Numbered from the stretch's first letter, positions 1 to 20,805 are shown. The stretch: DNA of 32,247 nt from an uncultured archaeon (GCA_964645535.1 CAZYCQ010000020.1:16433-48679), one strand, 5' to 3'. Numbers and translations are program-made. Notes: generated by a model not told the origin, from the sequence alone.

Positions 1-648
1 GAACCTGTGAGCACTCCGAAGCCAGAACCCATCAGTCAACCCAAACCAGTAGGTGCACCAACACCGTCTGATTCCGAAACTGTTGTGGATAATGAAGATA
101 AGACTTCCTCTTCTCAAGAGACAACCACTGAGGGATGGATCAAACCATCTGAATTTTTGGCAAGAAGAAGAAAGGTTGAAGCAAATAAACCAAAGAAGTT
201 TGATCCTGTTGCTCCAAATAAGCCACTTGTAGAGGAACCACAAAAAGAAGAAGAACAAGAATCGAAGGAAGAAAGTCCTTCTTTTGAGCCAAAACCTTTG
301 TCAAAAGAAACATTCAACAACATTGGCATATCAGATGAACCTGAGGAAGAAGAAAAAGAACCTGAACCAGTTAAACCAAAACCATCAGCTGTTAAAAAAG
401 ATACTCCTGCTGTTGATGAAAATACAAAGAAAGTATTGAAACTTTTTGCTGAATTCATTGATGAGGCAACTTCAACTAAAAACTTCCATGATCGGATCAG
501 TTCTGTTTGCGATATGGATGAGGCATATGAAGTTCTTGGGAGCATTGGTTTGAGCAAAATTTATGGATATATTGGGAAACCATTGGATAAGAAAAAAGAA
601 GTTATTGAATTACTTAACAAATGGGCAGTCGAAGGTGTTCCTCGATAA
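1..648 (+). CDS. Hypothetical protein, C-terminal part (5'-truncated); long Glu/Lys/Pro-rich linker followed by a small helical C-terminal domain
   Basis: Frame is open from base 1 to TAA at 646-648. Low-complexity EEP/KPK-rich region, then an ~75-aa globular-looking tail. Confidence 0.75.
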   Translation, partial: EPVSTPKPEPISQPKPVGAPTPSDSETVVDNEDKTSSSQETTTEGWIKPSEFLARRRKVEANKPKKFDPVAPNKPLVEEPQKEEEQESKEESPSFEPKPLSKETFNNIGISDEPEEEEKEPEPVKPKPSAVKKDTPAVDENTKKVLKLFAEFIDEATSTKNFHDRISSVCDMDEAYEVLGSIGLSKIYGYIGKPLDKKKEVIELLNKWAVEGVPR

Positions 649-1931: not shown

Positions 1932-3218
1932 ATGGAGTCTGTAAGAATGACCACCGCTGACAGTAAAGAGAAAAAGCGGAGTTCCCTTGAGCTCTATCAT
2001 TTGAAAAATGTCCTTAAACGATTGGAAAAAAAGCATTCCCCAAATATGAGTACGTCCCTGATCTCATTATATATTCCTCCAGGGACTCAACTTTCAGAAA
2101 TTGCAAATCTACTGCGCAACGAATATGGTACTGCATCCAATATTAAAGATAAAAAGACTGGAAAAGCAGTGATGGACGCTATCTCGAGTATTCTTGCTCG
2201 ATTGCCCAACTATGAAAATTCAGAAAATGGTCTTGTAATATTTGCAGGGATAACCGCTGATAAAAACAAGGTTGAATTCTATGCAATTTATCCCCCTGAA
2301 AAGGTGGGAATCAAAACCTATCGGTGTGAACCCTACTTTGATACAAAACATCTTCGCGAACTGCTTGATGTAAAGGATCAGTATGGTGTTATTGCAATTG
2401 CTAGAGGAGGGGCAACCTTTGCGGTTATCCGAGGAAGTAGTCTTCAGATCGTGATGGATACCGATAGCTTTGTTCCTAGCAAGCATGGTCGTGGCGGACA
2501 ATCTCAAGGACGTATTGAACGAGGTATTGAAATCTTGGCTGAGGAATTCTTCAGCAAGATGGCTGAGCAGGCAAACAAAATCTTCCTAGAAGAATATCCC
2601 GTGAAATTCGTGATTGTAGGCGGACCTGCAATGACTAAAGATCAGTTCCTTCAAAACAAGAATTTGGACTATCGATTGAAGGAAAAGATCCTTAAGGTAT
2701 ATGATGTTGGCTATACTGGTATTGCAGGTATTCGGGAAATTCTGGAAAAAGCAAAAGATGATCTTGATGAAATCGACCTGATAAAAGAAAGGAATTTGGT
2801 TGAGGAATTCAAGAAAGGTTTGGCAACAGGATCTAACAAAGTGACATATGGTGAAGAAGCTGTTCGAAAAGCATTACAGATGGCTGCAGTTGATACCGTC
2901 CTTTTCAGTGAAGGCATTGAAAAAACTCACCTGTATATTCACTGCACCAAATGTGATCATCGATTTATAGAAGTGAAAGAGCATGGTGAGCCTTCCATAT
3001 ATGAACTTCAAATCGCAAATATTCCATGTCCGAATTGCAAAGAAGTTGGTGGGCTTGAAATCGAAAAAGAAGAAGATCTCATCGATGAAATCGAAAGATT
3101 GGCAAAAGAAACGGGTGCAAAAATAGAGGTGATTTCCACTTCACATGAAAATGGAATGGAGCTCTTGAAGGCATTCACTGGCATTGCAGCCCTTCTTAGG
3201 TATCCCGTTGACTTTTAG
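1932..3218 (+). CDS. prf1: Peptide chain release factor aRF1/eRF1
   Basis: 'LISLYIPP', 'TASNIKD' (NIKS-like), 'YRCE' (YxCxxxF), 'KHGRGGQS' catalytic GGQ, C-terminal 'FTGIAALLRY', and a CxxC..CxxC mini-domain. Confidence 0.97.
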   Translation: MESVRMTTADSKEKKRSSLELYHLKNVLKRLEKKHSPNMSTSLISLYIPPGTQLSEIANLLRNEYGTASNIKDKKTGKAVMDAISSILARLPNYENSENGLVIFAGITADKNKVEFYAIYPPEKVGIKTYRCEPYFDTKHLRELLDVKDQYGVIAIARGGATFAVIRGSSLQIVMDTDSFVPSKHGRGGQSQGRIERGIEILAEEFFSKMAEQANKIFLEEYPVKFVIVGGPAMTKDQFLQNKNLDYRLKEKILKVYDVGYTGIAGIREILEKAKDDLDEIDLIKERNLVEEFKKGLATGSNKVTYGEEAVRKALQMAAVDTVLFSEGIEKTHLYIHCTKCDHRFIEVKEHGEPSIYELQIANIPCPNCKEVGGLEIEKEEDLIDEIERLAKETGAKIEVISTSHENGMELLKAFTGIAALLRYPVDF

Positions 3219-3312
3219 ATCATGGAAGGTCTCTCTCATTTTGACCAAATTTTCTTTTGACATGTGTAATATTCCTTAATATTTAATTGCCATTAGAAAA
3301 AAGGTAAACTAG

Positions 3313-3507
3313 ATGACAAAGATCGGTATGAAACCCAGCAAAACCTTCGCACGAGTAAAGTGCCCTGAATGCGAAAAGGAAACTATCGTTTTCATTTCTG
3401 CAAAGACCACTGTCCGTTGCTTAAATGAAGAATGCAATACGGTATTGGCAGTTCCACGGGGTGGAAAGGCAGAAATCAAGGGAGAAATTGTTGAACTTCT
3501 TTCCTAA
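3313..3507 (+). CDS. rps27e: 30S ribosomal protein S27e
   Basis: 'FARVKCPECEKETIVF...VRC....C..VLAVPRGGKA' matches the S27e pattern. Confidence 0.93.
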   Translation: MTKIGMKPSKTFARVKCPECEKETIVFISAKTTVRCLNEECNTVLAVPRGGKAEIKGEIVELLS

Positions 3508-4055
3508 ATTTTAAGATTGAGCTGTTTTACTTTTGATCTCCGAACGAAGTTTCTGATATTTTCAATTGGCATCAGGACAACATCTCCTTTTTTGAATGGT
3601 CCATATGTAAAAAGATCCGCCCCTACGATTTCATTTGGTTCATCCTCAAGGAAGATGCAAAATTCATACTTTTCTTCATCTTCCCCTTCAAAAGGCTCTT
3701 CCTTCAAGGCAGTTATCCCTAAAATCGAATCCTGATGAACTCGAATTAGGTGATTCAGCTTGTCTCTGAACATTTCTTCTTCCGACGTTAATTTTTTTGG
3801 TCTCGGCTTGCCTGCAATGATTTCGTAGAAGTGCTTTTCCATTCTGAGCTTAGTCAAATCATTGATGATAAAATTAAGTCTTTGAAACCTACGGTTAAAA
3901 ATTTTCCTTGCAAGTTCATCTTCATCACTTGTTGCCATCATTTCCAAGTGTTTGAGGTAAGTCTGGACTTTTTCGAAAAAATTTGGTTCTAAGGGAACAA
4001 GATCTTCTTCAACCCGTTCTCTTCTCCAAACATTCAAAATCTTCTCAAACAGCAT
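3504..4055 (-). CDS. GINS complex subunit, Gins51 (Sld5/Psf1-like, A-B domain order)
   Basis: N-terminal 'WRRERVEEDLVPLEPNFFEKVQTYL' helical A domain. C-terminal B domain 'IVGADLFTYGPFKKGDVVLMPIEN'. Lies directly downstream of PCNA. Confidence 0.9.
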   Translation of the reverse strand: MLFEKILNVWRRERVEEDLVPLEPNFFEKVQTYLKHLEMMATSDEDELARKIFNRRFQRLNFIINDLTKLRMEKHFYEIIAGKPRPKKLTSEEEMFRDKLNHLIRVHQDSILGITALKEEPFEGEDEEKYEFCIFLEDEPNEIVGADLFTYGPFKKGDVVLMPIENIRNFVRRSKVKQLNLKI

Positions 4056-4070
4056 GGAAATCCCTTAAGG

Positions 4071-4877
4071 TTAGTTGGTGGAACGTGGTGCAATTGCAAC
4101 AGCTGCATATCCTGCATCTTCTGCAAACTGAAAGATTGCTAGAACTGGTTTATTGTGACCAAAGCAGAGAAGCATATGATCCTGTATCTTTGAGAACTTG
4201 GTCAAATTCTTGATGTAGTCCATCGCAAAAGTCGCGCTTACTTCCTCCAATTCCGATTCAAATTTTACATTGGTGACTTCTTCATTTTCAAAATCAATTT
4301 CTGTATTTGTGCTTTTGGTGGTTCCTGTTGAAATGAGCCTCAATTTGTGTTTGGTCATTCTCAATTCTACGTGTGTACCCCCAAGAGAAGAAATTTGCAT
4401 TGCCTCTGCGAAGAGATTTGCAGAAATGACCAAGCTAGCCTCCAATTTCGTCTGTAGATTGATCAATCCTCTGAATTTATAGTCATCCGCCGTTCCTAAT
4501 AGCCTTAGATCGATTTCTTTGATCATCTTGTTTTTGATCAATTTGAAAACCATGATTCCTTCATTCTCATTCAGTTCTATATGCAACGTATCCGAAGCGC
4601 TTGCTGTTTTGAGAAAATCTGTCAATTCCTTAAGGTTGAGGTGGTAATTTTGTGTTTCAGAAATTTCATATTCTGAAAATTCCTTTTTGTTAATTTTCCC
4701 TTCAATCGCCCATACAAGTCCTTCCATTGCAGTTTGGAGATGCAGACCCGTGTCTGTGAATTCCAAGGTAATTCCTTCACTGATGTTCTGTGGGATTGGT
4801 TCGAGCAAAGTTCTCAATAGTTTTGGTGTTGGCAATACCGCTCTTAATGTCATATGAGTCTCTCCTAATCTGATCAT
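4071..4877 (-). CDS. pcn: DNA polymerase sliding clamp PCNA (divergent; start may be 4853)
   Basis: About 260 aa with 'LEFTDTGLHLQ', 'EFSEYE...LNLKELTDFLK', 'ATFAMDYI', 'FGHNKPV' and C-terminal 'IAPR', all typical of PCNA. Confidence 0.9.
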   Translation of the reverse strand: MIRLGETHMTLRAVLPTPKLLRTLLEPIPQNISEGITLEFTDTGLHLQTAMEGLVWAIEGKINKKEFSEYEISETQNYHLNLKELTDFLKTASASDTLHIELNENEGIMVFKLIKNKMIKEIDLRLLGTADDYKFRGLINLQTKLEASLVISANLFAEAMQISSLGGTHVELRMTKHKLRLISTGTTKSTNTEIDFENEEVTNVKFESELEEVSATFAMDYIKNLTKFSKIQDHMLLCFGHNKPVLAIFQFAEDAGYAAVAIAPRSTN

Positions 4878-4940
4878 TTATATCATTTTATAACCTCATA
4901 GGCTTTATCCCAAACTGTCTCAAACTTTTTTTTGGCAGTT

Positions 4941-5288
4941 TCATTCAGGATACGCGATACGACGTTCAAGAGATATGATTGTCTTATACTTTTCAAAATC
5001 TTCTGGCAACATCTTGTGTGCAAATTGACCGATGAATTTTATGCCTCCTTCAATCTCTTGAAGCTTACAGATGATTCTGAACGGTTGCATTAGTTTTAAT
5101 GTTGATGTAGGGATGCTCCCATACTCAATCTGGATTTGACTCTCTCCATCGTTTAGAACAAAACTAAGTGGATCCAAACTGACAACATATCCTATCAGCC
5201 GACACAAGGATGGTTTCTTATCTATTGCCTCTTGAATGAAAAAATCCTTGGCTGGCATTCTTGCAATGGGTTGAGCATCTTCATCCAT
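4941..5288 (-). CDS. Single OB-fold protein, RPA3/RPA14-like replication protein A small subunit
   Basis: 'RMPA...I.E', 'RLIGYVV', 'FVLNDGESQIQI', 'FRII', and a C-terminal helix 'DFEKYKTIISLERR' resembling the RPA trimerisation helix. Lies upstream of PCNA. Confidence 0.7.
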   Translation of the reverse strand: MDEDAQPIARMPAKDFFIQEAIDKKPSLCRLIGYVVSLDPLSFVLNDGESQIQIEYGSIPTSTLKLMQPFRIICKLQEIEGGIKFIGQFAHKMLPEDFEKYKTIISLERRIAYPE

Positions 5289-5373
5289 CTAAATCCTAAT
5301 CAAAGTTCACTTTAAAAAGAACGTTGTAATCTCTCGTTTTCCTTTATATAGATAATCTATTACTAAATTTCCG

Positions 5374-5706
5374 ATGAACACCCGTGAGTTTTCTCCGAGT
5401 CCTAAGTTACCTTCAAATGAAACCTCCTTTTCATTTTTCTCCATACGAACAACAGGGTCATCCTTTTCGCAAGGTACCTTGCGTCTTATCCTTCAATTGC
5501 TCATATCTCATTACGACATCCAGCGGTATACGCTTGAAAAAGAAAAAATGACTCTTGTTATAACTAAGCTTCCAAGAAAACAGACAAGGCAAATAGAGCA
5601 AATCATTGATTACATCAGATACAAACTCCTTACTTCAGTGGATGAATTTGCGTTGCTGGAAGAGATCAGAAGAAAAATGTTGGTTGGTGAGCCCCATGTT
5701 GAATGA
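5374..5706 (+). CDS. Hypothetical protein (110 aa)
   Basis: ATG 31 nt after the start of TTTATATA (5343). Overlaps the next ORF start by 11 nt. Confidence 0.6.
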   Translation: MNTREFSPSPKLPSNETSFSFFSIRTTGSSFSQGTLRLILQLLISHYDIQRYTLEKEKMTLVITKLPRKQTRQIEQIIDYIRYKLLTSVDEFALLEEIRRKMLVGEPHVE

Positions 5707-6148
5707 AATCATCTTCTCGTCAGCAATCATTTTGTTTTTGATGATGGTTCGTTCAAATTCATCAAAAGAGGAAAATGAAAGTCTCCTGAAAGTCAAGCAA
5801 CACTTTTCCCCTTACGGAAAATACTCGCAAGTTGATGGAAAATTTTATAGAAGCAACGCAGAAGCAAAAATTGCGCGTTTCCTTACCAAACGCAATATAA
5901 AGTTCATCTATGAATTTCCAATAAAGAAAACCAAATTTAAGACAGATTTCTATCTTGTTGACTATGACATCTATGTAGAATACTGGGGGCTGACAGATTT
6001 ACAAAACCGGGATGGTGATAGATATCGTGAAACTCATCGCCGGAAAATACGAATTTACCAAACTTTGGGTCTAAATCTCATCTCCATCTATCCCAAGGAT
6101 TTAAATCATCTCCCTCGAATCTTCCAGCATATCACTTCATCCCCTTGA
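5696..6148 (+). CDS. PD-(D/E)XK superfamily (Vsr/DUF559-like) nuclease with N-terminal hydrophobic anchor
   Basis: 'RSNAEAKIARFL...YE...TDFYL...IYVEYWG...Y....RK...Y' nuclease signature. N-terminal 'IIFSSAIILFLMMV' hydrophobic segment. In-frame ATG at 5696. Confidence 0.75.
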   Translation: MLNEIIFSSAIILFLMMVRSNSSKEENESLLKVKQHFSPYGKYSQVDGKFYRSNAEAKIARFLTKRNIKFIYEFPIKKTKFKTDFYLVDYDIYVEYWGLTDLQNRDGDRYRETHRRKIRIYQTLGLNLISIYPKDLNHLPRIFQHITSSP

Positions 6149-6173
6149 ATTTACTCTACATTTCGTTTTTGAT

Positions 6174-6189
6174 TTTATAAAACTATTTT
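6174..6189 (+). promoter_or_regulatory. TATA box upstream of the radA-like gene
   Basis: TTTATAAAACTATTTT starting 37 nt before ATG 6211. Confidence 0.5.
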
Positions 6190-6210
6190 CTATCATTCTT
6201 TCCGAGGACC

Positions 6211-7491
6211 ATGCCGAAAGAGAAATTATCTTATGATCCGAAAACTCATTTCGAGTATAATGGAAGAATTTGGACAAAAAGGCCTTCTACCAAAGTATTC
6301 TTCCAAGAAATGAAGGAAGCAAAGCTTCTCGCCAATTCCACTGCAACAAAAATTGCGAATATCTTTATCAAGGAAGGCTGGGAGACTTTTTCAGCATTTG
6401 AGACAAAGGGATTTGCAGATTTTGTAGCATTGGAAGGCGTATCTGCAGCCAGTGCAAAGAGAATCGCATCTCACAAACTTGTCATTGCTGCTGAAGGAAG
6501 ACCAATTCGGTCTTTCCAAGAACAGATTGAAATGAACAAAGGACATAAATACCTTCTGACACGTGTACATGACTTGAATCGCCATCTTAATGACGGGCAG
6601 GGTTTGGGGTTCCGGTCAGGTACACTGATTGAATTTTATGGCAAGCCCCAAATGGGCAAGACACAATGGATGTATGATCTAGCTGTCAGAACAATGCTTC
6701 CTCCAGAAAAAGGTGGTTGGGGTCAGGCAGTCATTTACTTTGATACTGAAGGTGCCTATAATGTCAACCGTATTCTTAAATGTGGATTGTATTGGGGTCT
6801 TTCAGAAGAGGATTTTGAAGAAAAGATGTATTATGTAAGTCCTCGCGTACTTTCGACTGGATCTGACTTGGTCACTCACATTGAAAATCTAGATCCCATA
6901 ATCCAAGAGAAAAATGTAGGGTTGATTATTATTGATTCCATCATTCAACCTTTCAAAAATGAATTTAAAAGTGTCGCTGGAGAAAACCTAAATTTCATGG
7001 GAAAGAGACAAAACCTGCTTGGTCAGGCATTGATGCGACTAAAATCATTGGCTCAGACCTATAAGTTAATTGTATGCTACACGAACCAGGTGATCGCAAA
7101 TATTGGTGGAATGGGTAACCAAGCAAAGGAAATTCCTGTCGGAGGTGATACTGTAGGTCATGCATCTGATCTCCGATTTGAGTTGAAAAAGGACAAATCG
7201 GTGGAAAAAAGTGAGACAAGGAGGATGAAATTAGTTGACTGCGGTTGGCTTCCAACTACAGTTACTACATTCTGTCTTACTCCATTTGGCATAGTTGATC
7301 CATCGGAAGTAAAAGAAGTTCTTAGAATCGCAGAAACTCTGGAAAATCGTGATCCCAAAGACAAAACTCCAATCCTTAACCATTTGGGACAGCCTATTTT
7401 GGAAAGCAAATACCTAAAATTTGGAAGTGAATTGGAGAAGTCATTCAAACTCCCTGATCTAACCGGTAATTTTGCTGAGGAAACATCTTAA
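6211..7491 (+). CDS. RadA/Rad51-family recombinase paralog
   Basis: Walker A 'GKPQMGKT', 'LPPEKGG', 'YFDTEG', Walker B 'LIIIDS', 'RQ', 'TNQV', 'GGDTVGH' and an N-terminal HhH-like domain. Has N- and C-terminal extensions. Confidence 0.92.
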   Translation: MPKEKLSYDPKTHFEYNGRIWTKRPSTKVFFQEMKEAKLLANSTATKIANIFIKEGWETFSAFETKGFADFVALEGVSAASAKRIASHKLVIAAEGRPIRSFQEQIEMNKGHKYLLTRVHDLNRHLNDGQGLGFRSGTLIEFYGKPQMGKTQWMYDLAVRTMLPPEKGGWGQAVIYFDTEGAYNVNRILKCGLYWGLSEEDFEEKMYYVSPRVLSTGSDLVTHIENLDPIIQEKNVGLIIIDSIIQPFKNEFKSVAGENLNFMGKRQNLLGQALMRLKSLAQTYKLIVCYTNQVIANIGGMGNQAKEIPVGGDTVGHASDLRFELKKDKSVEKSETRRMKLVDCGWLPTTVTTFCLTPFGIVDPSEVKEVLRIAETLENRDPKDKTPILNHLGQPILESKYLKFGSELEKSFKLPDLTGNFAEETS

Positions 7492-7605
7492 GAATACTAT
7501 CTTTTATTTCCATATAGAAATAGTCCCCACTTTGCAATTCTATTTTTGCTATTTGATGACTTTCTGTTTAATCCCCAAATATTTGTTCATCAATGGTGTC
7601 TCTTC

Positions 7606-7744
7606 ATTTTTTCTGAAATTTGGGACAAAATTCCACCACAATTCAAGACAATTGGCAAATGTCCCCCAAATAAACCTTTGATGGACTCTCAAGTCTGTTG
7701 ATGAATTTTCACCATATATTTTTTCTGAAATTTAGGACAAAATT
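7606..7744 (+). repeat. 27-bp direct repeat, two copies (7606-7632 and 7718-7744)
   Basis: ATTTTTTCTGAAATTTGGGACAAAATT versus ATTTTTTCTGAAATTTAGGACAAAATT: 1 mismatch, 112-bp period, in a ~380-bp intergenic gap. Confidence 0.9.
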
Positions 7745-7870
7745 GGGGGTGTCTTATCTACCCCTTCCACCTACCTTTTCTAATTTCGATATTTAAACTC
7801 CTGATGGAATTTTCCTCATTTCTTTCATTGATCACCAAATTCGGGATGTGTTTTTGAGAACTATTACCAT

Positions 7871-10800
7871 ATGTCAATCCATAGTGAGACCCTTAACTCA
7901 ACCGAACACCTTCATACTAGATCCAATTCTCCCTTCTCATATTGGATTAGCCGAGAAAAAACTCATGAAAAAAGTATTCATGAACTGGATCGAGAATATG
8001 AAATGCTGAAAGAGGAGTTCCGAAATCTCTATGGTGATGAACGAACGCTTTATGAGCCCAATTATGCTACAAATTACTTCTACAATTTTCCTAGTTTGAA
8101 TTCAGAACATATGGATCCATACAAATCGCAAAGTGTGATGTCCAAAATCAATTACTCTCATCTCATCAAAATCAAAGGAAAAAGGTTTGCACGAAGCATT
8201 CTTTTTTCAAGCTCAACTGGAGAACATACGAGAGAACATCACGAAAACAAGAAAATCATGAAAATACTTGCCGGTTTCGTTACAGAACCTTGGATCTACC
8301 TGAAAAGAGATTATCTCAACAAATATCATCCAAAGTTTTTGAAATTTCTTTGCAACACTGAAGTTCCAAGAAGAACTCCTACAATCTCAAAATACTTCTA
8401 TGTTATATTCAAATATCTTTACGTCGAACGTTACAGGACCGACCTTCCCTCCCGCCTCAAAAATGAACTGAAAAACATTCTCAATATCCGAAGACTCGGT
8501 CTCAAAAAGAAACTCGAACTTGAAGAGGCAGGTGTGATCTCTCGTGGTAAACCAAGCGACATATTGAAAACTCAGTCGAAAACTGTTGTCGATGAGGCAA
8601 GAACGGTATTGAGGAAGATGGCACTAATGCTTCCTCCTCATGTTTCAATTAGAGATCTTGTTTTAGGTGTCGACAAAGTGGCGTCAAGATATAAAATAAA
8701 TCTTAAAGGATTTTCTTATGAACCTGAGGCATTGGCATTCTTTACCTTGCTCCATTTTCTGAAAGGATTCCCACTTCCGTCCCGTCCAACTCTGATTTCT
8801 CTCCTTCTTGATCTGCCAAAGAAGGATTTTTCCGTGATTCAAACCTACCGTAAGATATTCCATTTCGGTGAGAATAATCCTTATCTTTCCGAATTGATTT
8901 CTGCCAGTAATTTTACGAAACTTTCAATTGATGATCTTTATCTTGAATGGCAAAAGGTTTCTTATGAGCCTTTTGAAATCAAGGATAAAACAACGTGCAT
9001 CCAGAAAAAAGTATCTGTTTCCGATTGCCAACTTTTGGAGGCTACTGATGCTGCCAATGAACTGGCTTTACATGGCATGGATTGGTTGCCAACAGAAGTT
9101 CTGTCACAACTCTTCAATTCATCTGATACCATGGAATTTCTGAAAACTGTTTCACATATAGAGAATCTAGGTGTTCAGAAACGGTTCAATTCACTCTATC
9201 GTTCATCAGTAAGGCAAAATTTTTCCCATATCCAACCATCCTCTCTTCCAGTTCAATTGATTAAGATAATCAAGGGCGTGGAATCATTGACCTTTTTTTC
9301 CCAGGGTCCTGACTTAGATATTGCCTTTTTGAGTTTCGTTCGCCATTTTGTAGATACTGAAGAAGCATTGGTCTTTTCTAGAAAATTCACTCCAAAATTT
9401 CTCAAATCCTTTTTTCCTCCTCTTTTGGTGAATCCTATTATCAAAAACATGGTTTTCGAAATACCATCTCATACCTCCAGAATGGTAATCTTGTTGGATG
9501 AATGCACCAATCACGAAGCTCATCCGCCACGATCTTTATGTAGAAAAATTAACCGTTCACCTGAGCTCGTAGTTTCATATCAATTGGTAAATCGTATAAG
9601 AAAAGGTATTTTCCCTCCTCAATTTTCCGAAATCAATGCCGAAATGAACAGTGGGAGAATGGTAATTGTTGAACAACGAAATCCGATGCTCGAAAAACTA
9701 TCAATTCCATTCTATGGGAGGGTACCTTGGCGAACATCTTCCTTACTTATTGATATGGCATATTATGTCTTGATTTTCGGATCAAAAGGTGGAAAGGTTC
9801 TTTTAAATCCAAATTTTCCATCAGGAACCTTTTTCAACCAATATTTGAACGGTACCCTTTCCTACCGGCTAAATCAACTAATGACATCAGAAAACCTCAA
9901 TCCAATGCAATTGGCCATTGGGGATGATGAAGTCATTGCATTTTATCTGCTTCAAATAATCCAACTTCGCTTGCTCCAAAAGAAATATTGTGCGTCAACC
10001 AATCAAAATCTTCCTCCAATTTTCTGGCTTGCATCAGAAACAGAATTTGCTGAACAATTGCTTGTTTGCGGATTAAAGAATCCGGAAAGAGTTAGGAAAC
10101 GCTTGGGGATTCATTTGCTGGATCCTGATCCCTTAACATCAATTACCGACTTTCTCACACTATTCAATGCCTTCCTTACCCCCCTCCCGAAAGGGTCCAC
10201 TGTGGTTTTCCCTTCAATCCATAGAATTCTACAAGATGAATATGTCCCTGATGAATTGAGAAAAATGGACGATGATGAATACTATTCGTATCTCTGGGAA
10301 TTGGCAGAATCAGAGGTCTCTGAATTTGATGAAACAATTGATGAATTTATCCAAAAAGAACTTGATGCCTATATTGATGAGACCACCACTGAACGAGAAC
10401 TCCTTCTACTCAGGAAAGAAGCGGAAGAAAAATTTCAAATGAAAAGACAGAAATTGATTCAATCTATTGATGCAAAAATAAAGGCTGCTGTCATTACCAG
10501 ATCCCATCACCAAGATCGAGGTATTCCCTATTATTTCAATGGAAACTACTCTACGGAAACAAAAGTTCGCCTCTTTCAGCTTTTACAGAATGTTGCAGAA
10601 AAGGCTATCACTGAAGAAATTTTTATTCTCATGGGTTGCAGGTCAGGTTCCTATTTCAAAATACCAATTGAAAAATTTGTTTCGGATCCTGGCTCCTTCT
10701 TGCCGACCTACAATTTGCAGAACAATAATGGGGAAAGTCTCGAATCTAAAGAGAGATTCATGTATCATACAGAACAACTGTTTTTAGATGTAGTCCAATT

Positions 10801-10960
10801 ACAAAAAGATCTCCTTTCGAAATTACCGACGTATTCTTTCATACACCTTTCATCCCACAAAGACAGAGTGATTGCCTATCTCAAGAATCAAGGTAATTGG
10901 AAAGGTGAGATCTGGAATATGGGTGAGGTGTATCGATACCTTCGAAGATTGGAGGAATAA
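7871..10960 (+). CDS. Large hypothetical protein (1029 aa); probable C-terminal inactivated RadA/RecA-like domain and possible N-terminal TFB/cyclin-like repeat
   Basis: Long uninterrupted ORF. The C-terminal third has RadA-ordered segments 'FPSGTFFNQYLNG', 'IFWLASETEF', 'VVFPSIHRILQDEY' and 'LLQNVAEKA...IFILMG' but no GKT. Domain calls are by eye. Confidence 0.6.
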   Translation: MSIHSETLNSTEHLHTRSNSPFSYWISREKTHEKSIHELDREYEMLKEEFRNLYGDERTLYEPNYATNYFYNFPSLNSEHMDPYKSQSVMSKINYSHLIKIKGKRFARSILFSSSTGEHTREHHENKKIMKILAGFVTEPWIYLKRDYLNKYHPKFLKFLCNTEVPRRTPTISKYFYVIFKYLYVERYRTDLPSRLKNELKNILNIRRLGLKKKLELEEAGVISRGKPSDILKTQSKTVVDEARTVLRKMALMLPPHVSIRDLVLGVDKVASRYKINLKGFSYEPEALAFFTLLHFLKGFPLPSRPTLISLLLDLPKKDFSVIQTYRKIFHFGENNPYLSELISASNFTKLSIDDLYLEWQKVSYEPFEIKDKTTCIQKKVSVSDCQLLEATDAANELALHGMDWLPTEVLSQLFNSSDTMEFLKTVSHIENLGVQKRFNSLYRSSVRQNFSHIQPSSLPVQLIKIIKGVESLTFFSQGPDLDIAFLSFVRHFVDTEEALVFSRKFTPKFLKSFFPPLLVNPIIKNMVFEIPSHTSRMVILLDECTNHEAHPPRSLCRKINRSPELVVSYQLVNRIRKGIFPPQFSEINAEMNSGRMVIVEQRNPMLEKLSIPFYGRVPWRTSSLLIDMAYYVLIFGSKGGKVLLNPNFPSGTFFNQYLNGTLSYRLNQLMTSENLNPMQLAIGDDEVIAFYLLQIIQLRLLQKKYCASTNQNLPPIFWLASETEFAEQLLVCGLKNPERVRKRLGIHLLDPDPLTSITDFLTLFNAFLTPLPKGSTVVFPSIHRILQDEYVPDELRKMDDDEYYSYLWELAESEVSEFDETIDEFIQKELDAYIDETTTERELLLLRKEAEEKFQMKRQKLIQSIDAKIKAAVITRSHHQDRGIPYYFNGNYSTETKVRLFQLLQNVAEKAITEEIFILMGCRSGSYFKIPIEKFVSDPGSFLPTYNLQNNNGESLESKERFMYHTEQLFLDVVQLQKDLLSKLPTYSFIHLSSHKDRVIAYLKNQGNWKGEIWNMGEVYRYLRRLEE

Positions 10961-11090: not shown

Positions 11091-12128
11091 TTGAAAAAAG
11101 AATACATTTCTTTCTTCCTAAATCTTCTTTTAGTAAGTTCACTCCTAAGCTCCAATGGTCAGCAACATGCTTTCCAGGAAAAAAGGATTGAATATCGTTT
11201 CGAATCTTTTGACAAGGGTTCTGCAATTCACACTCTTATCGCAAACAAATCGTCCGAAACTTTAATCTTCAACAAAACTTTGCCTGTTGAGACTGTGGTG
11301 TCCATTCGGTTAACTATTAGTACAAATTCTACCGGCAAATTCTCCTTGGTCGCATGGGGGGCAAAATTAAACCCTATGGACACTTTACCATCCTATTGGA
11401 TACTTTTCAAAAATAAACGAATCTTAGCATCACAATTTACTCCTCCACAAATTTTCACATTTTCCTCCAACAAACTCAATATTCCTGACGAATTCGTAAA
11501 CTTTCCTCTAGTATTAAAAATGGATGTGGTGAATGGGGGAAACGGGATTCTCCAAGCTCAAATAATTCTAGAATTTGAAATTGGTAAATATGTCCGGACA
11601 ACAACCTTCATGCCGAATGGTACCGAAAACGATTCTTTCATGAATTTTGTTGATCTTCCCTTTTCTAATGCCTCATTTGATGGATCGGCTTTCCTCTACT
11701 CAAAATTCGCATATTTCTATATTTCCTTCCCTAAATACATCTTTGATACAAAAAAAGAATTTGATCTAAACCTTGAGTTCTCAGTTGATAGCCAAAATTC
11801 ATTTGAATTTCTTCCACTCCTTGAAAATTTTAATAGTCCTGATAATTCAACAGAGACCACCAAAGCTTCAACCTTTACTTGGTTCAATATCAAACTTGAT
11901 CAAGGCATATCCATCTCCTTGGAAGGAAAGAATTCTCCCGCAAAAATATCTTTGGTATCCATATCTTTGACTCCCACACAAGATTCTGAGGGGTTTCTTG
12001 ATAGACTAATGGTCAGACGCGGTAATTCTCCCGCATTGGGCATTTTTATGGTTGCTCTTGTTTGGGGAGTTTATCTTTGGATTACAAAACGACGAATCTA
12101 TATAACATCTGCTACCCTTAATCGATAA
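11091..12128 (+). CDS. Secreted/cell-surface protein with signal peptide and C-terminal membrane anchor
   Basis: N-terminal 'MKKEYISFFLNLLLVSSLLS', beta-rich body with many NxS/T sequons, C-terminal TM 'ALGIFMVALVWGVYLWI' followed by KRR. GGAGG lies upstream of the TTG start. Confidence 0.75.
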   Translation: MKKEYISFFLNLLLVSSLLSSNGQQHAFQEKRIEYRFESFDKGSAIHTLIANKSSETLIFNKTLPVETVVSIRLTISTNSTGKFSLVAWGAKLNPMDTLPSYWILFKNKRILASQFTPPQIFTFSSNKLNIPDEFVNFPLVLKMDVVNGGNGILQAQIILEFEIGKYVRTTTFMPNGTENDSFMNFVDLPFSNASFDGSAFLYSKFAYFYISFPKYIFDTKKEFDLNLEFSVDSQNSFEFLPLLENFNSPDNSTETTKASTFTWFNIKLDQGISISLEGKNSPAKISLVSISLTPTQDSEGFLDRLMVRRGNSPALGIFMVALVWGVYLWITKRRIYITSATLNR

Positions 12129-12163: not shown

Positions 12164-15100
12164 GTGAAAATTTCAATAATTGCAGATGCGATTGTAGTTG
12201 AAAATAATGCCAATGTGGATATCCATTATCCTTTAATTCTTCCTTTTGTTCCATTGAAGCTAAATGTCGTTTCACATGAAAAATTTAGGCGTTTTGGCCC
12301 CTCTTACAAGAAAAGAATGGCTGACTCAAGACAGATGCCATTGTTGATAAATGATATCGATCATGAAACCACCTTAAAACACGTTTCCGTGCAGCATTAC
12401 GTCAAATTCCTTGTGGCATTCGTGAATTCTGGAATTCCAATACGAGTGATCAAAAAAGAAAATCAGTTTATTGTTTTAGCTGTATTTCATGAAAAAATTA
12501 TTGGAAATAAGAACAGAAAAGATCTAGAAAACAAAATTAATGAAAAATGGAGGCGTCTTCCTCAATTTCCTAAGTTGAGCTTGTCTCCAAGGATGCTTTA
12601 TTCTCTAAAAAAATATCCGTTCTTTGCTTTCAATGTCCAGAATCTTTTCAAGCATCATCGAAAATGGCTCATTCCATTTTCTACATATGGAATGATCCTA
12701 GATAGACTGGCATCAGAATTCCAGGTTCCTGATGATCAGACTGAAACGTTCTCTGGAAACGAAGCCATCAAGGAATATGAAGATAACGGCATTTCTGTTT
12801 ATGTCTTTTCAGTGCGAAAGAAGAAATACCGATTGGAAAATGGAAATGTTTTACTCGTATACGGCCCAATACATGAAATAGGGGAATGGTTTCCTCACGT
12901 TCTTGCTAGATTTAGGGATCGTCTTCTTTGGCTTGGAAATTTTCCAGAAAGAAATGGTGTGTCCCGTCAGATTGATTTCCAAAAATACCGGGTAGATTTC
13001 CTTAATCTCTTGAAACGTATTGATGTTGGATCTGATGTCACATTTTTCGGGAATTATCTTTGGCGAATAACACAGATGAAGTCTTTTAGAAAGGCTTTTC
13101 GAAAATTATTGACAATCATTGAACAGAAAGGGCTTGGACAAGGTCTTAACAACGTTCCCTTCAGCAGAATAATTGAAGCATTTGGCCATCCTGAGGTATC
13201 ACAGGCCATGAGTGAAGGAGAACGAAGATTTGTATATGCTACTTTCATCCAATTGGACAATTACAGATTTCTGGATCCAGAAACAGCCTCCAATCCTTTG
13301 GTTTTTGAGGAATTCGGTTATCTCTGGCATTCCCTCAGAAATCCAAATATCATTCAAATGCTCTTTGAAGCATATATTCTGCTGAAATTCGCGTCAATTC
13401 ATGACATGGGTTATTCTCTTCTTGTTGTAGAAGATCAGGATGCTGCTTTGCATCTTTTGGAAAGTAATGCCTTAGAACTTATTCAATCCGAATTTCCGGA
13501 TCTAAAAATTATTCTTTCTCTGAAAGAGTGTAAAAGAGTTTCTAATACTTATCATCAACTCATAATAGGGAAACACCAAGTATCACAGTTTCTTCCAAAC
13601 AATGCATCTGCCAGATTCCCAAAAACCATCAATCTTTACCGAAATCCTGCCGGAAAAGGATTTGTTCATGTGGCAATTGATAATTTTCCAATTTCCACAT
13701 TCACAAATGAATTTGATCCTCTTCTGCTAGAAGAAGGCAGTCCTCCTTCCCTTCTTTCCCCTATCCAAGAAGAGAATGAAGAGGTACGTATCGTCTTGCA
13801 AAAGATAATTGTTGATGGAAACACTTCTCTTCTTTCCTCACACAAATTTTCAGAGAAGGTAAAAGAACACGTTGATATCGCTCTTTTACTTGAAAAATTT
13901 CCTATTATCGGTTTATCCAAGGGTTTTGATCTAACTGAGGTATCGTCGACAAAAATGAATCGTTTGAAACGTTCTGAAATACGAGAAATTCAAAATTCTT
14001 CAATAGAACGGGCTGTGGAACGGGGGTTCGTATTAACTATTGGAAAGGGTTACTCTAGCGATAGTGATCAATTTGAAATTACAGAGAATGGGATAAAATG
14101 GTATCACACCCTTCTACAGAAAATAAGAAAGGATTTCATTGACTTGGTTGTAACACTTCCTAATACCTTCGAAATTTTTGATAAAGTTGGAAATAAAGTT
14201 AAGGAACTTATGGAATTGAGGCAACTCTCAAATTCTAGGATTGTCCATTTGAAATTATTGGAATATGGATTTATGGCCTTTGCTTACGGAAACTTCGGTC
14301 TTCATGTTCCTGCACTCCTTCTGGGTTTGTATTCTCTTTTTGACCCCAAAATTGAATTTTCAGAACCTGAATTTATAGATGGGGAATTAGACAGCTTATA
14401 TCGACTGAGGTGTGTTTCACTTAAGACAAAAGTTCTTGAATTGTTCCAGACTCAATCTAATCAACAAGATAACCCAAAAAAAATTGAGATGGAAGAGGAA
14501 AATAGATTTGAAAATGCTTCTCAATACATTGATGAATTACCCAATCCCATCCCTTCATCAATTAAAACTTCTGCTCCCTCTATTCCTGAAATACTCAAGT
14601 TCATGAAAGAAAGTAAGCTTACGACAGTTGTACTTCCTAAATCAGACAATCTCTCACTAGATCAAAAAATAAGTGTTATCAAGGAGATTCCTATAAATGG
14701 ATTCTTTACTGAAAGTTCCTCAAAAAAACTTGGATCTTTCAGATCTATGAAATTAGGACAGCTTTTGGAATTTTCAAAAGAGGAAATTGAAAATGAAATT
14801 TCTGAACCAGTAATTGCGGAAAAATTATACTCCCTAAAATCCAAGTGTGTCAATCAAAAATTTGTATATCTCTTTTCCCAACTTGATGCGTATTACAAGA
14901 AACTAACTATAGCCACAGGCATCAGGATTCCAAAATCTCTACTTCCACATGATATCGTCATTCCGATGTCCGATGACAACACTGCAAAAATAAGGGAAGG
15001 AGTGAACCAAAGCAGTACAAACCTTGAAATCTTTGGTCGGTTTTTTCATATCATTTTGCTCATATGGTGCAATAACGAACAACTTCGATTGAAAATCACT

Positions 15101-15397
15101 AAAAAGACAAGTGATGCTTCTTCAGAATGGATTAAATCTGTAACCTCTCTTGATGTCAAAGAATTCACTCCGCACCTTCTAACGGAAATGAACCGGTTGA
15201 TCCAGGCGTTTCAGGAATTTCGTGGTGGTATGGAAATCAAGGAAGATTCTTACAAGATGAAACCCACTCCATTTATGGTTTCTGTCGGTTATTTTAGATT
15301 GAATCGCTTATGGAAACTAATTGAGGAAAATGATCCTGAATCAAATAAAAGGCTAATTTTCGAGAAGATTCATAAAATTGTAGAGTACAGAAGTTGA
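12164..15397 (+). CDS. Large hypothetical protein (1077 aa); probable degenerate VirB4/HerA-like ATPase domain plus winged helix
   Basis: 'NVLLVYGP' (Walker A position, no GKT), 'FLNLLK', 'HSLRNP', 'LLVVED' (Walker B-like), and later wHTH-like 'IERAVERGFV...FEITENG'. Confidence 0.55.
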   Translation: MKISIIADAIVVENNANVDIHYPLILPFVPLKLNVVSHEKFRRFGPSYKKRMADSRQMPLLINDIDHETTLKHVSVQHYVKFLVAFVNSGIPIRVIKKENQFIVLAVFHEKIIGNKNRKDLENKINEKWRRLPQFPKLSLSPRMLYSLKKYPFFAFNVQNLFKHHRKWLIPFSTYGMILDRLASEFQVPDDQTETFSGNEAIKEYEDNGISVYVFSVRKKKYRLENGNVLLVYGPIHEIGEWFPHVLARFRDRLLWLGNFPERNGVSRQIDFQKYRVDFLNLLKRIDVGSDVTFFGNYLWRITQMKSFRKAFRKLLTIIEQKGLGQGLNNVPFSRIIEAFGHPEVSQAMSEGERRFVYATFIQLDNYRFLDPETASNPLVFEEFGYLWHSLRNPNIIQMLFEAYILLKFASIHDMGYSLLVVEDQDAALHLLESNALELIQSEFPDLKIILSLKECKRVSNTYHQLIIGKHQVSQFLPNNASARFPKTINLYRNPAGKGFVHVAIDNFPISTFTNEFDPLLLEEGSPPSLLSPIQEENEEVRIVLQKIIVDGNTSLLSSHKFSEKVKEHVDIALLLEKFPIIGLSKGFDLTEVSSTKMNRLKRSEIREIQNSSIERAVERGFVLTIGKGYSSDSDQFEITENGIKWYHTLLQKIRKDFIDLVVTLPNTFEIFDKVGNKVKELMELRQLSNSRIVHLKLLEYGFMAFAYGNFGLHVPALLLGLYSLFDPKIEFSEPEFIDGELDSLYRLRCVSLKTKVLELFQTQSNQQDNPKKIEMEEENRFENASQYIDELPNPIPSSIKTSAPSIPEILKFMKESKLTTVVLPKSDNLSLDQKISVIKEIPINGFFTESSSKKLGSFRSMKLGQLLEFSKEEIENEISEPVIAEKLYSLKSKCVNQKFVYLFSQLDAYYKKLTIATGIRIPKSLLPHDIVIPMSDDNTAKIREGVNQSSTNLEIFGRFFHIILLIWCNNEQLRLKITKKTSDASSEWIKSVTSLDVKEFTPHLLTEMNRLIQAFQEFRGGMEIKEDSYKMKPTPFMVSVGYFRLNRLWKLIEENDPESNKRLIFEKIHKIVEYRS

Positions 15398-15794: not shown

Positions 15795-16311
15795 GATGTT
15801 TTTGGAACTTTACGCTCTCCATGTACTGATTGCAACCATATTTTCATATTTGGTCATTCCATTACTCCCCAGTTCCTTGACCAAACCTTATTTGCAGTTT
15901 GGATCTGCATTAAGAAAAGGTATCTATGAAACGATCGAAAAGATATATGAAAAAAAGACAATCGAGCTTTATTTAACATCAAGAATCTTTACTCCTTTTG
16001 TTATCTTCGTCATTTTGAGTTCATTTGTCTTGGATTTCATCGTTTCTGCTGAGGGCTTGATTGCTACTCAATTTCTTGGATGGCTCCTGTATGGTTCTCT
16101 TGTGATAAATTCTGTTCCATCAATTGAAGAATGGGATCATATTGTACAGGGAGACCCCATTTCATGGGCATTTGTATGGATAAAGGTAACAGTGATCATT
16201 GATTTTCTTGGTAACCAGACCTTTGATTTCCTACCCCCTTTTGCTACATATGTTGCAATTTTCTTTCCTTTCTCAGTTTTTTTCCCTGAAGGCGAAACGA
16301 GATTTGTTTAG
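15781..16311 (+). CDS. Membrane protein, probable inactivated M50-like metallopeptidase family (paralog of 21473..22222)
   Basis: Several TM segments, 'IFTPF' and 'GWLLYGSLVINSVPSIEEW', no HExxH. Start may be the ATG at 15787 or 15796. The stop overlaps the polB start. Confidence 0.6.
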   Translation: MKMIRMFLELYALHVLIATIFSYLVIPLLPSSLTKPYLQFGSALRKGIYETIEKIYEKKTIELYLTSRIFTPFVIFVILSSFVLDFIVSAEGLIATQFLGWLLYGSLVINSVPSIEEWDHIVQGDPISWAFVWIKVTVIIDFLGNQTFDFLPPFATYVAIFFPFSVFFPEGETRFV

Positions 16312-18924: not shown

Positions 18925-20805
18925 GTGATCAATATCTCCGTTCAAACAAACTCTTCTAAACTCGATAATCTAATCAACCTTTTCCCCTATCCCAAGCCCT
19001 CTCCTGCACAGGTATCCATGATGGAAACCATTGTCCTTTCTCCTGCCCAAACAAAGATTATGGTTCATAACTCCACGGGGGCAGGAAAAACCATTGCTGT
19101 ATTGACCGGTGCTTTAGCAAGAAAAGAGAAAGGTCAGAAAATATTGGTTTTTTGCAGAACCATCTCCCAAATCACTTCATTTCTTCGCGAATGGAATTCC
19201 CTGCTACAACCAACTCCCGTCAAGTCATTGGAAACCCGTAAAATTCCCCTGATCCTCCCCTATCTTGGCAAAATGAGGCTTTGCAGACTCCTTGACAAAA
19301 GTTCATCTGTCGATATCAAAATTCCTCCAGAAGCGGTAAGCATTCTTTGCCATATGTTACCCTGCAATTACCATCCCAATCGAAATGTGGAAAAACCTGA
19401 AGGTGAACGATTTATTCTTCCCACCAACATCAAACTTTCATACAATCCTTCTCCAGAACATTTCAAAAAAATACTGTTTCAAATACGTAAATCCCAATGT
19501 CCCTATTATCTTCAACATTCTATGTTAAAGGCATCGGAAATTGTAGTTACCACTTATGCATACCTTTGGGAACCTCTATTTTCCCATATGCTGCAATCAT
19601 TGGGAATTGGAATTGAAGATGCAATCCTTATATTTGATGAAGCACACAATCTAGCAAATACTGTAAAAGAATCGATCACTCTCAAAGATATTGAATTTGT
19701 TCAGAATGAACTTGGAAACCACCCCATGCTTTCCTCCCTCAAAGAGGCTTTCGGCCAACTGCAGTTGCTGACCCCTTCGGATTTGGGTGAGGAATTCATG
19801 TGGAGTGATCTTGAAAGTTTCCTTAATCTGACAAATAATGAGGATGATAAATCGGTTTTTGCTTTTTTAAGCTCAGAAGAGGTATTGAGAATGAAACGAT
19901 TTCTCAGACTAAGAAGTTCTGGGTATATCGTAGCCAATTCAGAAGTTCTTACTTTCATACGTGTGGCTCCCAAGGAATGGCTTTCTAGATTTCAAACAGC
20001 AAACCTCCAGATCTACATGAGCGGCACTTTTCGCCCCCTCTATCTTTTCGCAAAAATGTTTGGCTTTGACAATAAAGATACTGTTCTTCTTGATTTCACC
20101 CAATCAAATCCCAACAATATTTTCAAGAGCTATCTTTCATACAAGGGACTAACTAGCAAAGCAAGCAAAAGAACTCCTGCTTTGTTTACAGACATGGCAA
20201 AAACCATTGTGACACTTTCTGAATTGTCACCTAGGCATGTTATGGTTGTCTGCCCGTCATATGTCTTTCAACAGGGTTTGTTGGCTCCACTGAAGGAATT
20301 TTCTCCATATGAACTAATTGTTGAAGAAAAGCAAACCAAACTTGTCGAAATACAAAGAGAACTAGATCGGAAAAAGACAAAGGTTTTGATTTTAGCCATT
20401 TCTTCCGGGAAGTTCTCTGAAGGAATTCAACTTGTGCATCATGGACGGTCTCTTCTTTCTTTATTGATATTTGCAGGTCTCCCTTTTGCCACCCCTTCTG
20501 ATGATCAAAAGTTTATCTCCCGTTTGTTGGCCAATGTTCTGGAAAATCCTTCCCTTGCTTTGAATTTTGAGCAGGTTGTTCCTCTTATGCAATTAATCAC
20601 GCAGGCTCTTGGAAGAACTGTTCGATCTCAAAAGGACAAGGGTGCTCTTGTATTGTTGGATTACCGTGCAGAGCTTCTTAGAGGTCTTGATCGAGAATTT
20701 ACGATAACAAAGTACACTAACCTTGATTTATTGAAATCTGAATTGCGTGAATTTTTCAAACATTACCCCACCATTGAGGAGTTGAGTAATCATGCAAAAC
20801 AATGA
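18925..20805 (+). CDS. XPD/Rad3/DinG-family SF2 Fe-S DNA helicase
   Basis: Q motif 'FPYPKPSPAQ', Walker A 'STGAGKT', Cys cluster (LC..., C..LPC, CPYY), 'FDEAHN', 'MSGT', 'GKFSEGI', 'GLPF' and motif VI 'QALGRTVR'. Confidence 0.93.
   Translation: MINISVQTNSSKLDNLINLFPYPKPSPAQVSMMETIVLSPAQTKIMVHNSTGAGKTIAVLTGALARKEKGQKILVFCRTISQITSFLREWNSLLQPTPVKSLETRKIPLILPYLGKMRLCRLLDKSSSVDIKIPPEAVSILCHMLPCNYHPNRNVEKPEGERFILPTNIKLSYNPSPEHFKKILFQIRKSQCPYYLQHSMLKASEIVVTTYAYLWEPLFSHMLQSLGIGIEDAILIFDEAHNLANTVKESITLKDIEFVQNELGNHPMLSSLKEAFGQLQLLTPSDLGEEFMWSDLESFLNLTNNEDDKSVFAFLSSEEVLRMKRFLRLRSSGYIVANSEVLTFIRVAPKEWLSRFQTANLQIYMSGTFRPLYLFAKMFGFDNKDTVLLDFTQSNPNNIFKSYLSYKGLTSKASKRTPALFTDMAKTIVTLSELSPRHVMVVCPSYVFQQGLLAPLKEFSPYELIVEEKQTKLVEIQRELDRKKTKVLILAISSGKFSEGIQLVHHGRSLLSLLIFAGLPFATPSDDQKFISRLLANVLENPSLALNFEQVVPLMQLITQALGRTVRSQKDKGALVLLDYRAELLRGLDREFTITKYTNLDLLKSELREFFKHYPTIEELSNHAKQ

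Follow-up and report, generated by a model that had tools for sequence, protein, structure and literature searches.

Can a protein that matches no RecA-family profile end in a RecA-type domain, and would such a domain work together with a RadA paralog encoded just upstream? These questions are raised by a stretch of 32,247 nucleotides (nt) from an uncultured archaeon (GCA_964645535.1 CAZYCQ010000020.1:16433-48679), referred to here as the window, in which a giant gene for a protein of 1029 amino acids (aa), P0001, lies downstream of a gene for a divergent RadA paralog. A preliminary description made from the sequence alone had proposed that the C-terminal ~380 aa of this protein are an inactivated RadA/Rad51-like domain, with an acidic insert in place of the L1 DNA-binding loop, and that the protein could be a Rad51-paralog-like mediator or an ImuA-like scaffold. 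The open reading frame (ORF) and all six sequence strings on which that proposal was built are present as quoted (aa 649-661, 680-697, 717-726, 778-791, 904-922 and 996-1004; nt 9815-10882). The parts of the protein discussed below, with the basis for each, are as follows.

7871..10960, plus strand: giant gene encoding the 1029-aa protein (ORF and translation)
7928..8965, plus strand: conserved N-terminal module, ~aa 20-365, a separate gene in some relatives
9659..9808, plus strand: strand-rich subdomain before the core, ~aa 597-646 (AlphaFold2 elements E9-13, H16-26, E32-38, E41-48 and E51-56)
9818..10945, plus strand: predicted RecA-superfamily core without ATPase motifs, ~aa 650-1025 (model and structure searches)
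9905..9937, plus strand: putative Walker A-equivalent site (secondary structure on sequence, family alignment)
10196..10243, plus strand: putative Walker B-equivalent strand and helix, GSTVVFPSIHRILQDEY (model elements E188-191 and H194-202)
10250..10519, plus strand: acidic helical insert of ~90 aa, aa 794-883 (model helices 205-208, 212-231, 234-243 and 252-294)
10553..10642, plus strand: helix and strand, aa 895-924, the predicted equivalents of the RadA helix and 'TNQV' strand (model elements H306-325 and E329-335)

Sequence comparison shows no resemblance of the C-terminus to RadA beyond chance. BLASTP against the neighboring RadA paralog gave E 0.9, and hhalign of two family alignments (A2 and A3; A numbers denote alignments) with two RadA alignments made from the window's genome and orthologous loci gave P 0.11-0.45. 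Neither phmmer nor the family profile matched a RecA-like chain among PDB sequences, Pfam found no match to PF08423 or any other RecA-like model in P0001 or in 10 family members, even at E<=5, and a genome-derived RadA hidden Markov model scored all family members at E>0.04, with bit scores negative or near zero. By profile, Walker A or Walker B, the C-terminal domain is not a member of the RadA/Rad51 family.

We modeled residues 590-1029 with AlphaFold2 on the 10-sequence family alignment A3, obtaining a mean predicted local distance difference test score (pLDDT) of 83.4 and a predicted template-modeling (TM) score, pTM, of 0.73, with all five models at pLDDT 80-83. Foldseek gave 47 matches in the PDB at E<=1e-3; KaiC was best (E 1e-4), and the best 50 matches listed were all KaiC. 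VIA-align, a Foldseek-independent scan of 48,161 representative chains with a stated background of best Z 7-8, returned RecA-superfamily proteins in all of its best 33 rows, at Z 10-12.7, with 170-210 residues aligned at a root-mean-square deviation of 3.1-4.4 A over model ~62-435. These included FlaH (Z 12.7, 192 aa aligned), UvsX (12.6), RAD51-XRCC3-RAD51C (12.1), KaiC (12.1), DMC1 (11.9), BCDX2 (11.8), Rad51 (11.4), RecA (11.4), DnaB (11.2), RadA/Sms (10.7), RadB (10.5) and Elp456 (10.3-10.4). When Foldseek's best 1000 chains were re-aligned, archaeal RadA scored Z 12.1-12.7 (S. solfataricus filaments and the P. furiosus ATPase domain, 108-346). Across the VIA alignments, the model range ran from 61..75 to 430..438, with Z up to 12.8, and an ESM Atlas search with the model found KaiC, AAA_25, Rad51 and RadB clusters. 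The predicted model thus has RadA, Rad51, DMC1, UvsX, RecA, KaiC, FlaH and DnaB all among its structural neighbors. With model confidence, Foldseek, VIA-align and ESM Atlas in agreement, we consider it very likely that residues ~650-1025 form a RecA-type core, the fold that the preliminary description had anticipated. A separate ESM Atlas feature search with residues 590-1029 returned viral RNA-dependent RNA polymerase clusters at 0.90-0.92; only 120-133 of 256 features were shared, and we treated these matches as chance.

Could the RecA-like model instead be an artefact of prediction, with the C-terminus in truth a lineage-specific domain that folds in another way? The alignment holds only 10 sequences, a single-sequence AlphaFold2 run on residues 640-1029 was uninformative (pLDDT 40.6), no sequence method sees RecA, and the Foldseek global TM-scores of the model are only 0.23-0.30, values that we ascribe to the 90-aa insert and the extra N-terminal subdomain. 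However, all five models reached the confidence given above, three independent libraries and aligners arrived at one superfamily over 170-210 residues (Z 10-12.8, against a background of 7-8), and a motif register proposed blind from the sequence falls on the predicted elements. We therefore regard an artefact as unlikely.

In the model, strand 1 (MQLAIG, aa 679-684) passes into a helix (aa 687-710) through a two-residue turn, DD (aa 685-686), where RadA has its eight-residue P-loop. Judged by their chain ranges, RadB, Rad51 and P. furiosus RadA have Walker A at model ~96-105, in agreement with the site assigned here, and the family consensus at this site is Q-h-x-x-G-D, with no Lys-Ser/Thr. 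Strand 2 is IFW (aa 717-719); the residue after it, at the catalytic Glu position, is not conserved. The Walker B strand, TVVF (aa 777-780), is followed by Pro at the Asp position, which is Pro, Gly, Glu or Ser across the family. By direct reading, GSTVVFPSIHRILQDEY matches VGLIIIDSIIQPFKNEF of the RadA paralog without gaps, and the family's best conserved residues, E790 and Y791, lie at the end of the helix after the Walker B strand (in A3, Y202 is invariant and E201 nearly so). A helix (aa 895-914) and the strand FILMGCR (aa 918-924) follow farther on. The RadA element order proposed earlier thus survives as a match of motifs to the corresponding strands and helices of the model, and not as a similarity of sequence.

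The proposed inactivation is supported by the family alignment, in which neither GxxxxGK[ST], nor the Walker B Asp, nor a conserved catalytic Glu occurs in any of the 10 members (0/10). Because all ten lack these elements, the loss is ancestral to the family. Judged from the model, the core is most likely unable to bind or hydrolyze ATP in the canonical way. The domain could still bind a nucleotide or other ligand through non-canonical residues and act as a switch, for which the conserved G-D that ends strand 1 and the residues around the Walker B-equivalent strand (S/T776, E790 and Y791) would be candidates. The phosphate-binding loop, however, is physically missing, cut to the two-residue turn, and no Lys or Ser/Thr pair is conserved there; we give such a switch very little credence.

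The insert lies where the preliminary description had placed it. It spans ~90 aa (aa 794-883), is helical in the model, with one helix of 43 residues, is acidic (25 D/E versus 14 K/R in 91 residues) and is present in every family member. Its assignment to the place of L1 follows from element order and the known RadA/Rad51 topology rather than from residue-level superposition, and an unstructured stretch of ~34 residues is likewise placed at the L2 position by element order. At the other end of the core, the strand-rich subdomain (~aa 597-646) falls outside most of the structural alignments. The 60 residues before the core are modeled as strand-rich, unlike the helical helix-hairpin-helix (HhH) domain, and visual inspection of the conserved A3 columns showed no FxxA-type motif.

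From which branch of the RecA superfamily would this core have come? RadA, Rad51, DMC1, Rad51 paralogs, UvsX, KaiC and FlaH are tied as structural neighbors, less than 1 Z unit apart (Z 12-12.8, 175-205 residues aligned), and sequence gives no signal, so a subfamily of origin cannot be assigned. The label 'RadA/Rad51-like' accordingly holds as far as a RecA-superfamily core, and a RadA/Rad51-like core cannot be told from a KaiC-, FlaH- or UvsX-like one. FlaH/ArlH and KaiC share the superfamily with the model (FlaH at Z 12.7, KaiC at Foldseek E 1e-4) and are regulators or scaffolds rather than recombinases. Both, however, bind ATP through a canonical Walker A, whereas P0001 has none and stands in no arl or kai gene context: its neighbors are the RadA paralog, unknown proteins, PolB and XPD, and no archaellum Pfam model was matched in the window. 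KaiC is moreover a tandem double domain, and in each alignment just one of its domains (17-243 or 256-476) is paired with the single P0001 core (model 62-435), which is devoid of Walker motifs.

P0001, which matches no Pfam family, belongs to a small, unannotated and fast-evolving family known only from a few Heimdallarchaeota; alignment A3 of this family contains no conserved stretch of 7-10 columns. Word-indexed homolog searches gave only 2 proteins each, and the relatives came from an exhaustive search of 1.84 billion representatives, which yielded only 12 credible ones; P0017, a eukaryote-like GTPase/protease from the same search, was discarded as spurious. In what follows, G000 is the window's genome, G001 onward are related genomes, and L numbers are the loci or contigs compared. 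The assembly containing the window is 3.6 Mb and 89% complete, its nearest relatives are metagenome-assembled genomes named Candidatus Heimdallarchaeota, and the best DNA match to the window in a search of public runs was a hot-spring metagenome; no RNA dataset was listed for the stretch among these runs. A collinear ortholog of P0001, with 51% identity, lies in a fully syntenic contig (L001). When 47 genomes of the order were searched, matches came only from the same genus (3/3) and one other genus of the family. Identity within the giant family is 21-53%, versus 49-86% for the RadA neighbor over the same loci, indicating much faster evolution.

The gene is divided in some relatives. In G003 (L021 7891-11174) its place is taken by two genes, of 531 and 563 aa, the stop of one overlapping the start of the other, and on a distant metagenomic contig (L024 6062-11283) three genes of 582, 478 and 692 aa replace the single one; a counterpart of the middle gene was not detected in the window. 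Because the gene is split in both places, we take the C-terminal half to be an independent unit. The N-terminal module has N-only homologs (P0009, P0011, P0012, P0014 and P0016). Within it, ~aa 165-245 (window 8363-8605) may contain a winged helix-turn-helix, a weak hint that comes from a profile search of the PDB with A5 (ArsR-family 2p4w at E 0.006, SlyA at E 0.13-0.2). The N-terminal 400 aa gave no usable match in an ESM Atlas search, and the N-terminal 600 aa gave no match in Pfam.

In another genus, contig L047 (G008:C302) carries at 1497-8598 a RadA-paralog-like gene (428 aa), then within 6 nt a 1320-aa ORF, and then an XPD-like helicase. Homology to the giant family was not detectable for this 1320-aa protein or for a large ORF of G006, both of which lie downstream of more distant RadA-paralog-like genes; the G008 protein has a sub-threshold RAD51D_N match near its C-terminus (E 0.051). 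The G008 arrangement may correspond to that in the window, either by analogy or after strong divergence.

We now turn to the partner that the preliminary description had suggested for the C-terminal domain, and to the immediate surroundings of the giant gene.

6211..7491, plus strand: divergent RadA paralog, 426 aa (Pfam Rad51 match)
7492..7870, plus strand: conserved intergenic spacer, 379 bp in the window (alignment of four orthologous spacers)
11091..12128, plus strand: gene for a membrane-anchored 345-aa protein (topology read from sequence)

The earlier identification of the 6211..7491 product as a RadA paralog is correct, because the Walker A, Walker B and TNQV motifs and the GGD..H.SD.R block are kept and are invariant in five orthologs (49-86% identity). 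The product matches Pfam PF08423 (Rad51) at E 4.7e-36 and has Walker A GKPQMGKT, Walker B IIIDS, TNQV, GGDTVGHASDLRF and an N-terminal HhH-like region. It is the most divergent of the six Rad51-family genes in G000 (C5:40690, C20:6325, C83:4757, C45:19858, C16:14050 and C20:23033), at 126 bits versus 146-266 bits for the others, and is 27-32% identical to the other five proteins. It is thus a divergent but ATP-competent paralog. Beyond the Rad51 core it carries a conserved C-terminal tail of ~60 aa (window 7312-7488) that could be a docking peptide. The motif P-h-L-N-H-h-G-x-x-I-x-x-S is conserved in this tail in all five orthologs.

An ortholog of the RadA paralog is found upstream of the giant gene in the window, L001, G002, G003 and L024, a distant contig in which the giant protein is only ~21% identical. 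In the lineage of G007, whose own contigs break at the locus so that linkage was judged from L049, the distance to the RadA paralog upstream is 3.8 kb, and a DUF285 gene and a reverse ORF intervene. Linkage within 4 kb (<=4 kb) was found on 6/6 contigs long enough to judge, and RadA-paralog orthologs (at least 48% identity) and the giant family co-occur in five genomes (G000-G003 and G007). Immediately before the ortholog of the RadA paralog, L024 (3026-4276) and L049 (2067-3068) have a gene for a UbiA-family prenyltransferase (Pfam), and L031 has a 331-aa ORF (2439-3434) at the equivalent position; the window has no such gene.

The giant gene is the next gene downstream of the RadA paralog, as had been described, but the two are separated by the 379-bp spacer, which is conserved in length (380-510 bp) in four genomes. 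The spacer contains two RGGACAAAAT boxes (7622-7631 and 7734-7743) as well as, 67 nt ahead of the ATG, a TATA-like element, ATATTTAAACTCCTGA (7789-7804), and so resembles an archaeal promoter under regulation.

A predicted complex of the two proteins is consistent with direct pairing. ESMFold2 runs with the RadA paralog and residues 590-1029 gave interface scores (ipSAE) of 0.49, 0.53 and 0.54, the overall value being 0.53, with all three controls at 0.00. The pass mark used here is reached by 58/80 solved complexes and 2/110 mismatched pairs; scores <=0.60 comprise 7/80 solved complexes and both passing mismatches, and the support lent by this score is thus weak. The partners had pLDDT values of 74 or more, and at least 67% of contacts were common to the runs.

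Given conserved gene linkage and this score, we hypothesized that the C-terminal domain is a pseudo-ATPase, a non-catalytic subunit or adaptor that pairs with the upstream RadA paralog, a reading to which we assign even chances. Several points weigh against it. The C-terminus has no sequence similarity to any RecA-family profile, so its fold rests on one prediction from a shallow alignment, and its structural neighbors are tied across subfamilies that differ in function (recombinases, KaiC, FlaH and DnaB). The complex score lies in the range of weak support, and model memory may account for part of the pass, since RecA-RecA interfaces are well represented among solved structures. The contigs and genomes in which linkage and co-occurrence were judged are close kin from one narrow clade, so they amount to one evolutionary observation and not six. 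The conserved spacer with its promoter-like element means that the RadA paralog and the giant gene need not be co-transcribed. Finally, the tightest conserved neighbor of the giant gene is the membrane-anchored protein and not the RadA paralog, a poor fit to a recombination mediator.

Homologs of this 345-aa protein follow the pseudo-RecA gene in 8/8 loci examined (window 11091-12128, L001 11081-12103, L021 6695-7777, L022 3210-4145, L023 299-1327, L024 11382-12521, L025 2616-3704 and L027 2241-3428), with a stop/start overlap once, in L025. Members of the family (~310-395 aa) share a hydrophobic stretch at the N-terminus, numerous N-x-S/T sequons and an anchor at the C-terminus (W-G/S-x-Y ... 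K-K-R), and have no Pfam match; in the window's protein the N-terminal stretch is signal-like and is accompanied by a sequon-rich domain and a membrane anchor of the form W-G-x-Y ... K-R-R.

This neighborhood suggests another reading, in which the core serves a membrane-associated machine as a regulatory scaffold of the FlaH/ArlH or KaiC type and the RadA paralog is a mere neighbor. The machine would be built from the membrane-anchored protein, a 1077-aa protein and the array's small membrane proteins, and would function perhaps in DNA transfer or in membrane tethering of DNA enzymes. The constant position of the membrane-anchored protein and the promoter-like element of the giant gene's own fit such a machine, as do FlaH as nominal best match in the wide structural scan and KaiC as best in Foldseek. 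The structural ranking, however, is undercut by the tie of FlaH and KaiC with RadA, Rad51 and UvsX; Pfam scans of the window found neither archaellum nor kai genes, the Walker A retained by FlaH and KaiC is absent throughout this family, and the RadA paralog is linked across the whole known range of the giant family. We regard this reading as possible though doubtful, and return to the RadA paralog as the proposed partner after considering the rest of the array, which is laid out as follows.

1932-3218, plus strand: eRF1
3504-4055, minus strand: GINS51
4071-4877, minus strand: PCNA
12164..15397, plus strand: 1077-aa protein of unassigned fold, next array member (orthologs in L001, G003 and G007)
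Between the 1077-aa gene and PolB, plus strand: two small ORFs
16311-18875, plus strand: PolB (Pfam)
18925..20805, plus strand: XPD-like (DEAD_2) helicase paralog (Pfam)

We considered whether the array is a recently mobile element and rejected this, because the PCNA-GINS-eRF1 flank is syntenic in related genomes. The 1077-aa protein had no Pfam match and no match among PDB sequences, also when searched as a profile. It is a paralog of the 24769-27948 product; the two proteins (~1060-1080 aa) are 15% identical in alignment A8, and neither Pfam nor a profile search of PDB sequences matches either of them. The DNA enzyme most constantly linked to the array is the XPD-like helicase, found in the window, L001, G003, L024 and G008. 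G000 has three PolB genes and four XPD-like (DEAD_2) genes in all. On its contig C83, a 323-aa RadA lies ~600 bp from a PolB gene, forming a second RadA-PolB neighborhood.

The polymerase bears on the ImuA-like role raised in the preliminary description. ImuA, of the bacterial imuA-imuB-dnaE2 mutasome, is an inactive RecA-like adaptor encoded beside a DNA polymerase gene, and by analogy P0001 would recruit the array's PolB paralog for damage tolerance. An inactive RecA-fold protein does occur here in the same co-directional array as one of the genome's three PolB genes, and PolB is also present on the distant contig L024. Yet PolB is missing from the orthologous G003 array, where the XPD-like helicase directly follows the small ORFs, and in the window it is 5 kb and four genes away. 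This inconstancy of PolB as a neighbor weakens the ImuA-like role. Pfam scans of the window found no ImuB-like or Y-family polymerase gene, there is no sequence relation to known families, and the domain of life and the architecture differ; no ImuA entry turned up in the searches. We consider an ImuA-like role improbable, more so than an artefactual model.

How does P0001, read as a partner of the RadA paralog, compare with known RecA-fold accessory proteins? The Csm2-Psy3 pair lacks canonical Walker motifs. It stands among the degenerate Rad51 paralogs of eukaryotes, which include the Shu complex Csm2-Psy3, SWSAP1, XRCC2 and RIP-1 of RFS-1/RIP-1 (PMC4518479, PMC3084681). Like the P0001 domain as predicted, these proteins have a RecA/Rad51-type core, weak or absent ATPase motifs and very divergent sequences; they are often recognized only by structure and work in heteromers with an ATP-competent Rad51-family protein. 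Rad51-paralog chains (XRCC3, RAD51C and BCDX2) are also among the best structural matches of the P0001 model. Unlike them, the P0001 core is the C-terminal third of a 1029-aa protein, behind a strand-rich subdomain and a long N-terminal module; it has the 90-aa acidic insert at the putative L1 position, is archaeal and confined to a few Heimdallarchaeota, is operonically tied to a membrane-anchored protein, and is not demonstrably descended from RadA.

The archaeal RadA paralogs (RadB, aRadC/KaiC-like proteins and Sulfolobus Ral) are likewise accessory RecA-fold proteins beside RadA, and RadB appears both in the structural scan (Z 10.5) and as an Atlas cluster. They are short (~220-260 aa), detectable by Pfam Rad51 or KaiC models, and keep Walker A, whereas the P0001 domain fails every profile and has no P-loop. 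In the role proposed here, P0001 would also resemble RecA-fold pseudo-ATPases that act as degenerate RecA-like assembly platforms, namely Elp4/5/6 of Elongator and the N-terminal domain of BcsE; chain 9fnn_E of the Bcs macrocomplex, which we take to be BcsE, aligned with the model at VIA-align Z 12.1. Their partners and pathways (tRNA modification and cellulose secretion) are unrelated, and they have no context in common with P0001.

We propose the following arrangement for the P0001 system. The C-terminal domain would be a RecA-superfamily alpha/beta core (~aa 650-1025) in which a turn of two residues is all that is left of the P-loop, another residue stands in place of the Walker B aspartate and a catalytic glutamate is not conserved, and in which an acidic helical hairpin of ~90 aa takes the place of the L1 DNA-binding loop. 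This pseudo-ATPase would pair RecA-core to RecA-core with the ATP-competent RadA paralog, much as active and degenerate protomers are brought together in the Rad51-paralog complexes of eukaryotes. The N-terminal module, possibly a winged helix, and the insert would then contact DNA or other products of the array, such as the membrane-anchored protein, the 1077-aa protein and the XPD-like helicase. The ORF, its conservation, the motif losses and the gene linkage are observed, and the fold is predicted. The mediator or partner role suggested in the preliminary description is one that we infer from gene linkage and the in silico complex score, as is any part in recombination or repair.

Mixed complexes of active and degenerate RecA-fold proteins (BCDX2, CX3, Shu and Rad55-Rad57) are regarded as belonging to the elaboration of recombination in eukaryotes. 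The archaeal accessory paralogs known to us so far are short and keep their ATP site. Duplicated RadA clades have been described in Heimdallarchaeia (PMC12722695); a term search of that paper found no mention of a protein of the P0001 kind, nor is one mentioned in the RadA/Rad51/RecA passages of a recent Asgard structural clustering. Tentatively, and with more doubt than attaches to the pairing itself, we suggest that a subgroup of Heimdallarchaeota may have evolved its own heteromeric recombinase-accessory complex independently of eukaryotes. It would consist of a RadA paralog and a pseudo-RecA with an acidic arm at L1, tethered through the membrane-anchored partner to an XPD-like helicase (and PolB in some genomes), and would work as a membrane-associated machine for DNA repair or DNA exchange. 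The interest of the case comes from its Asgard context and from its discovery blind from sequence, and is limited by the narrow distribution of the family and by a function that we infer. Degenerate domains of this sort escape profile searches; only structure prediction on family alignments can reveal them. If the proposal is true, Asgard archaea also explored 'dead paralog' solutions, and the RadA paralog and the giant gene would form a simple two-gene system in which to study how a non-catalytic RecA protomer affects a recombinase.

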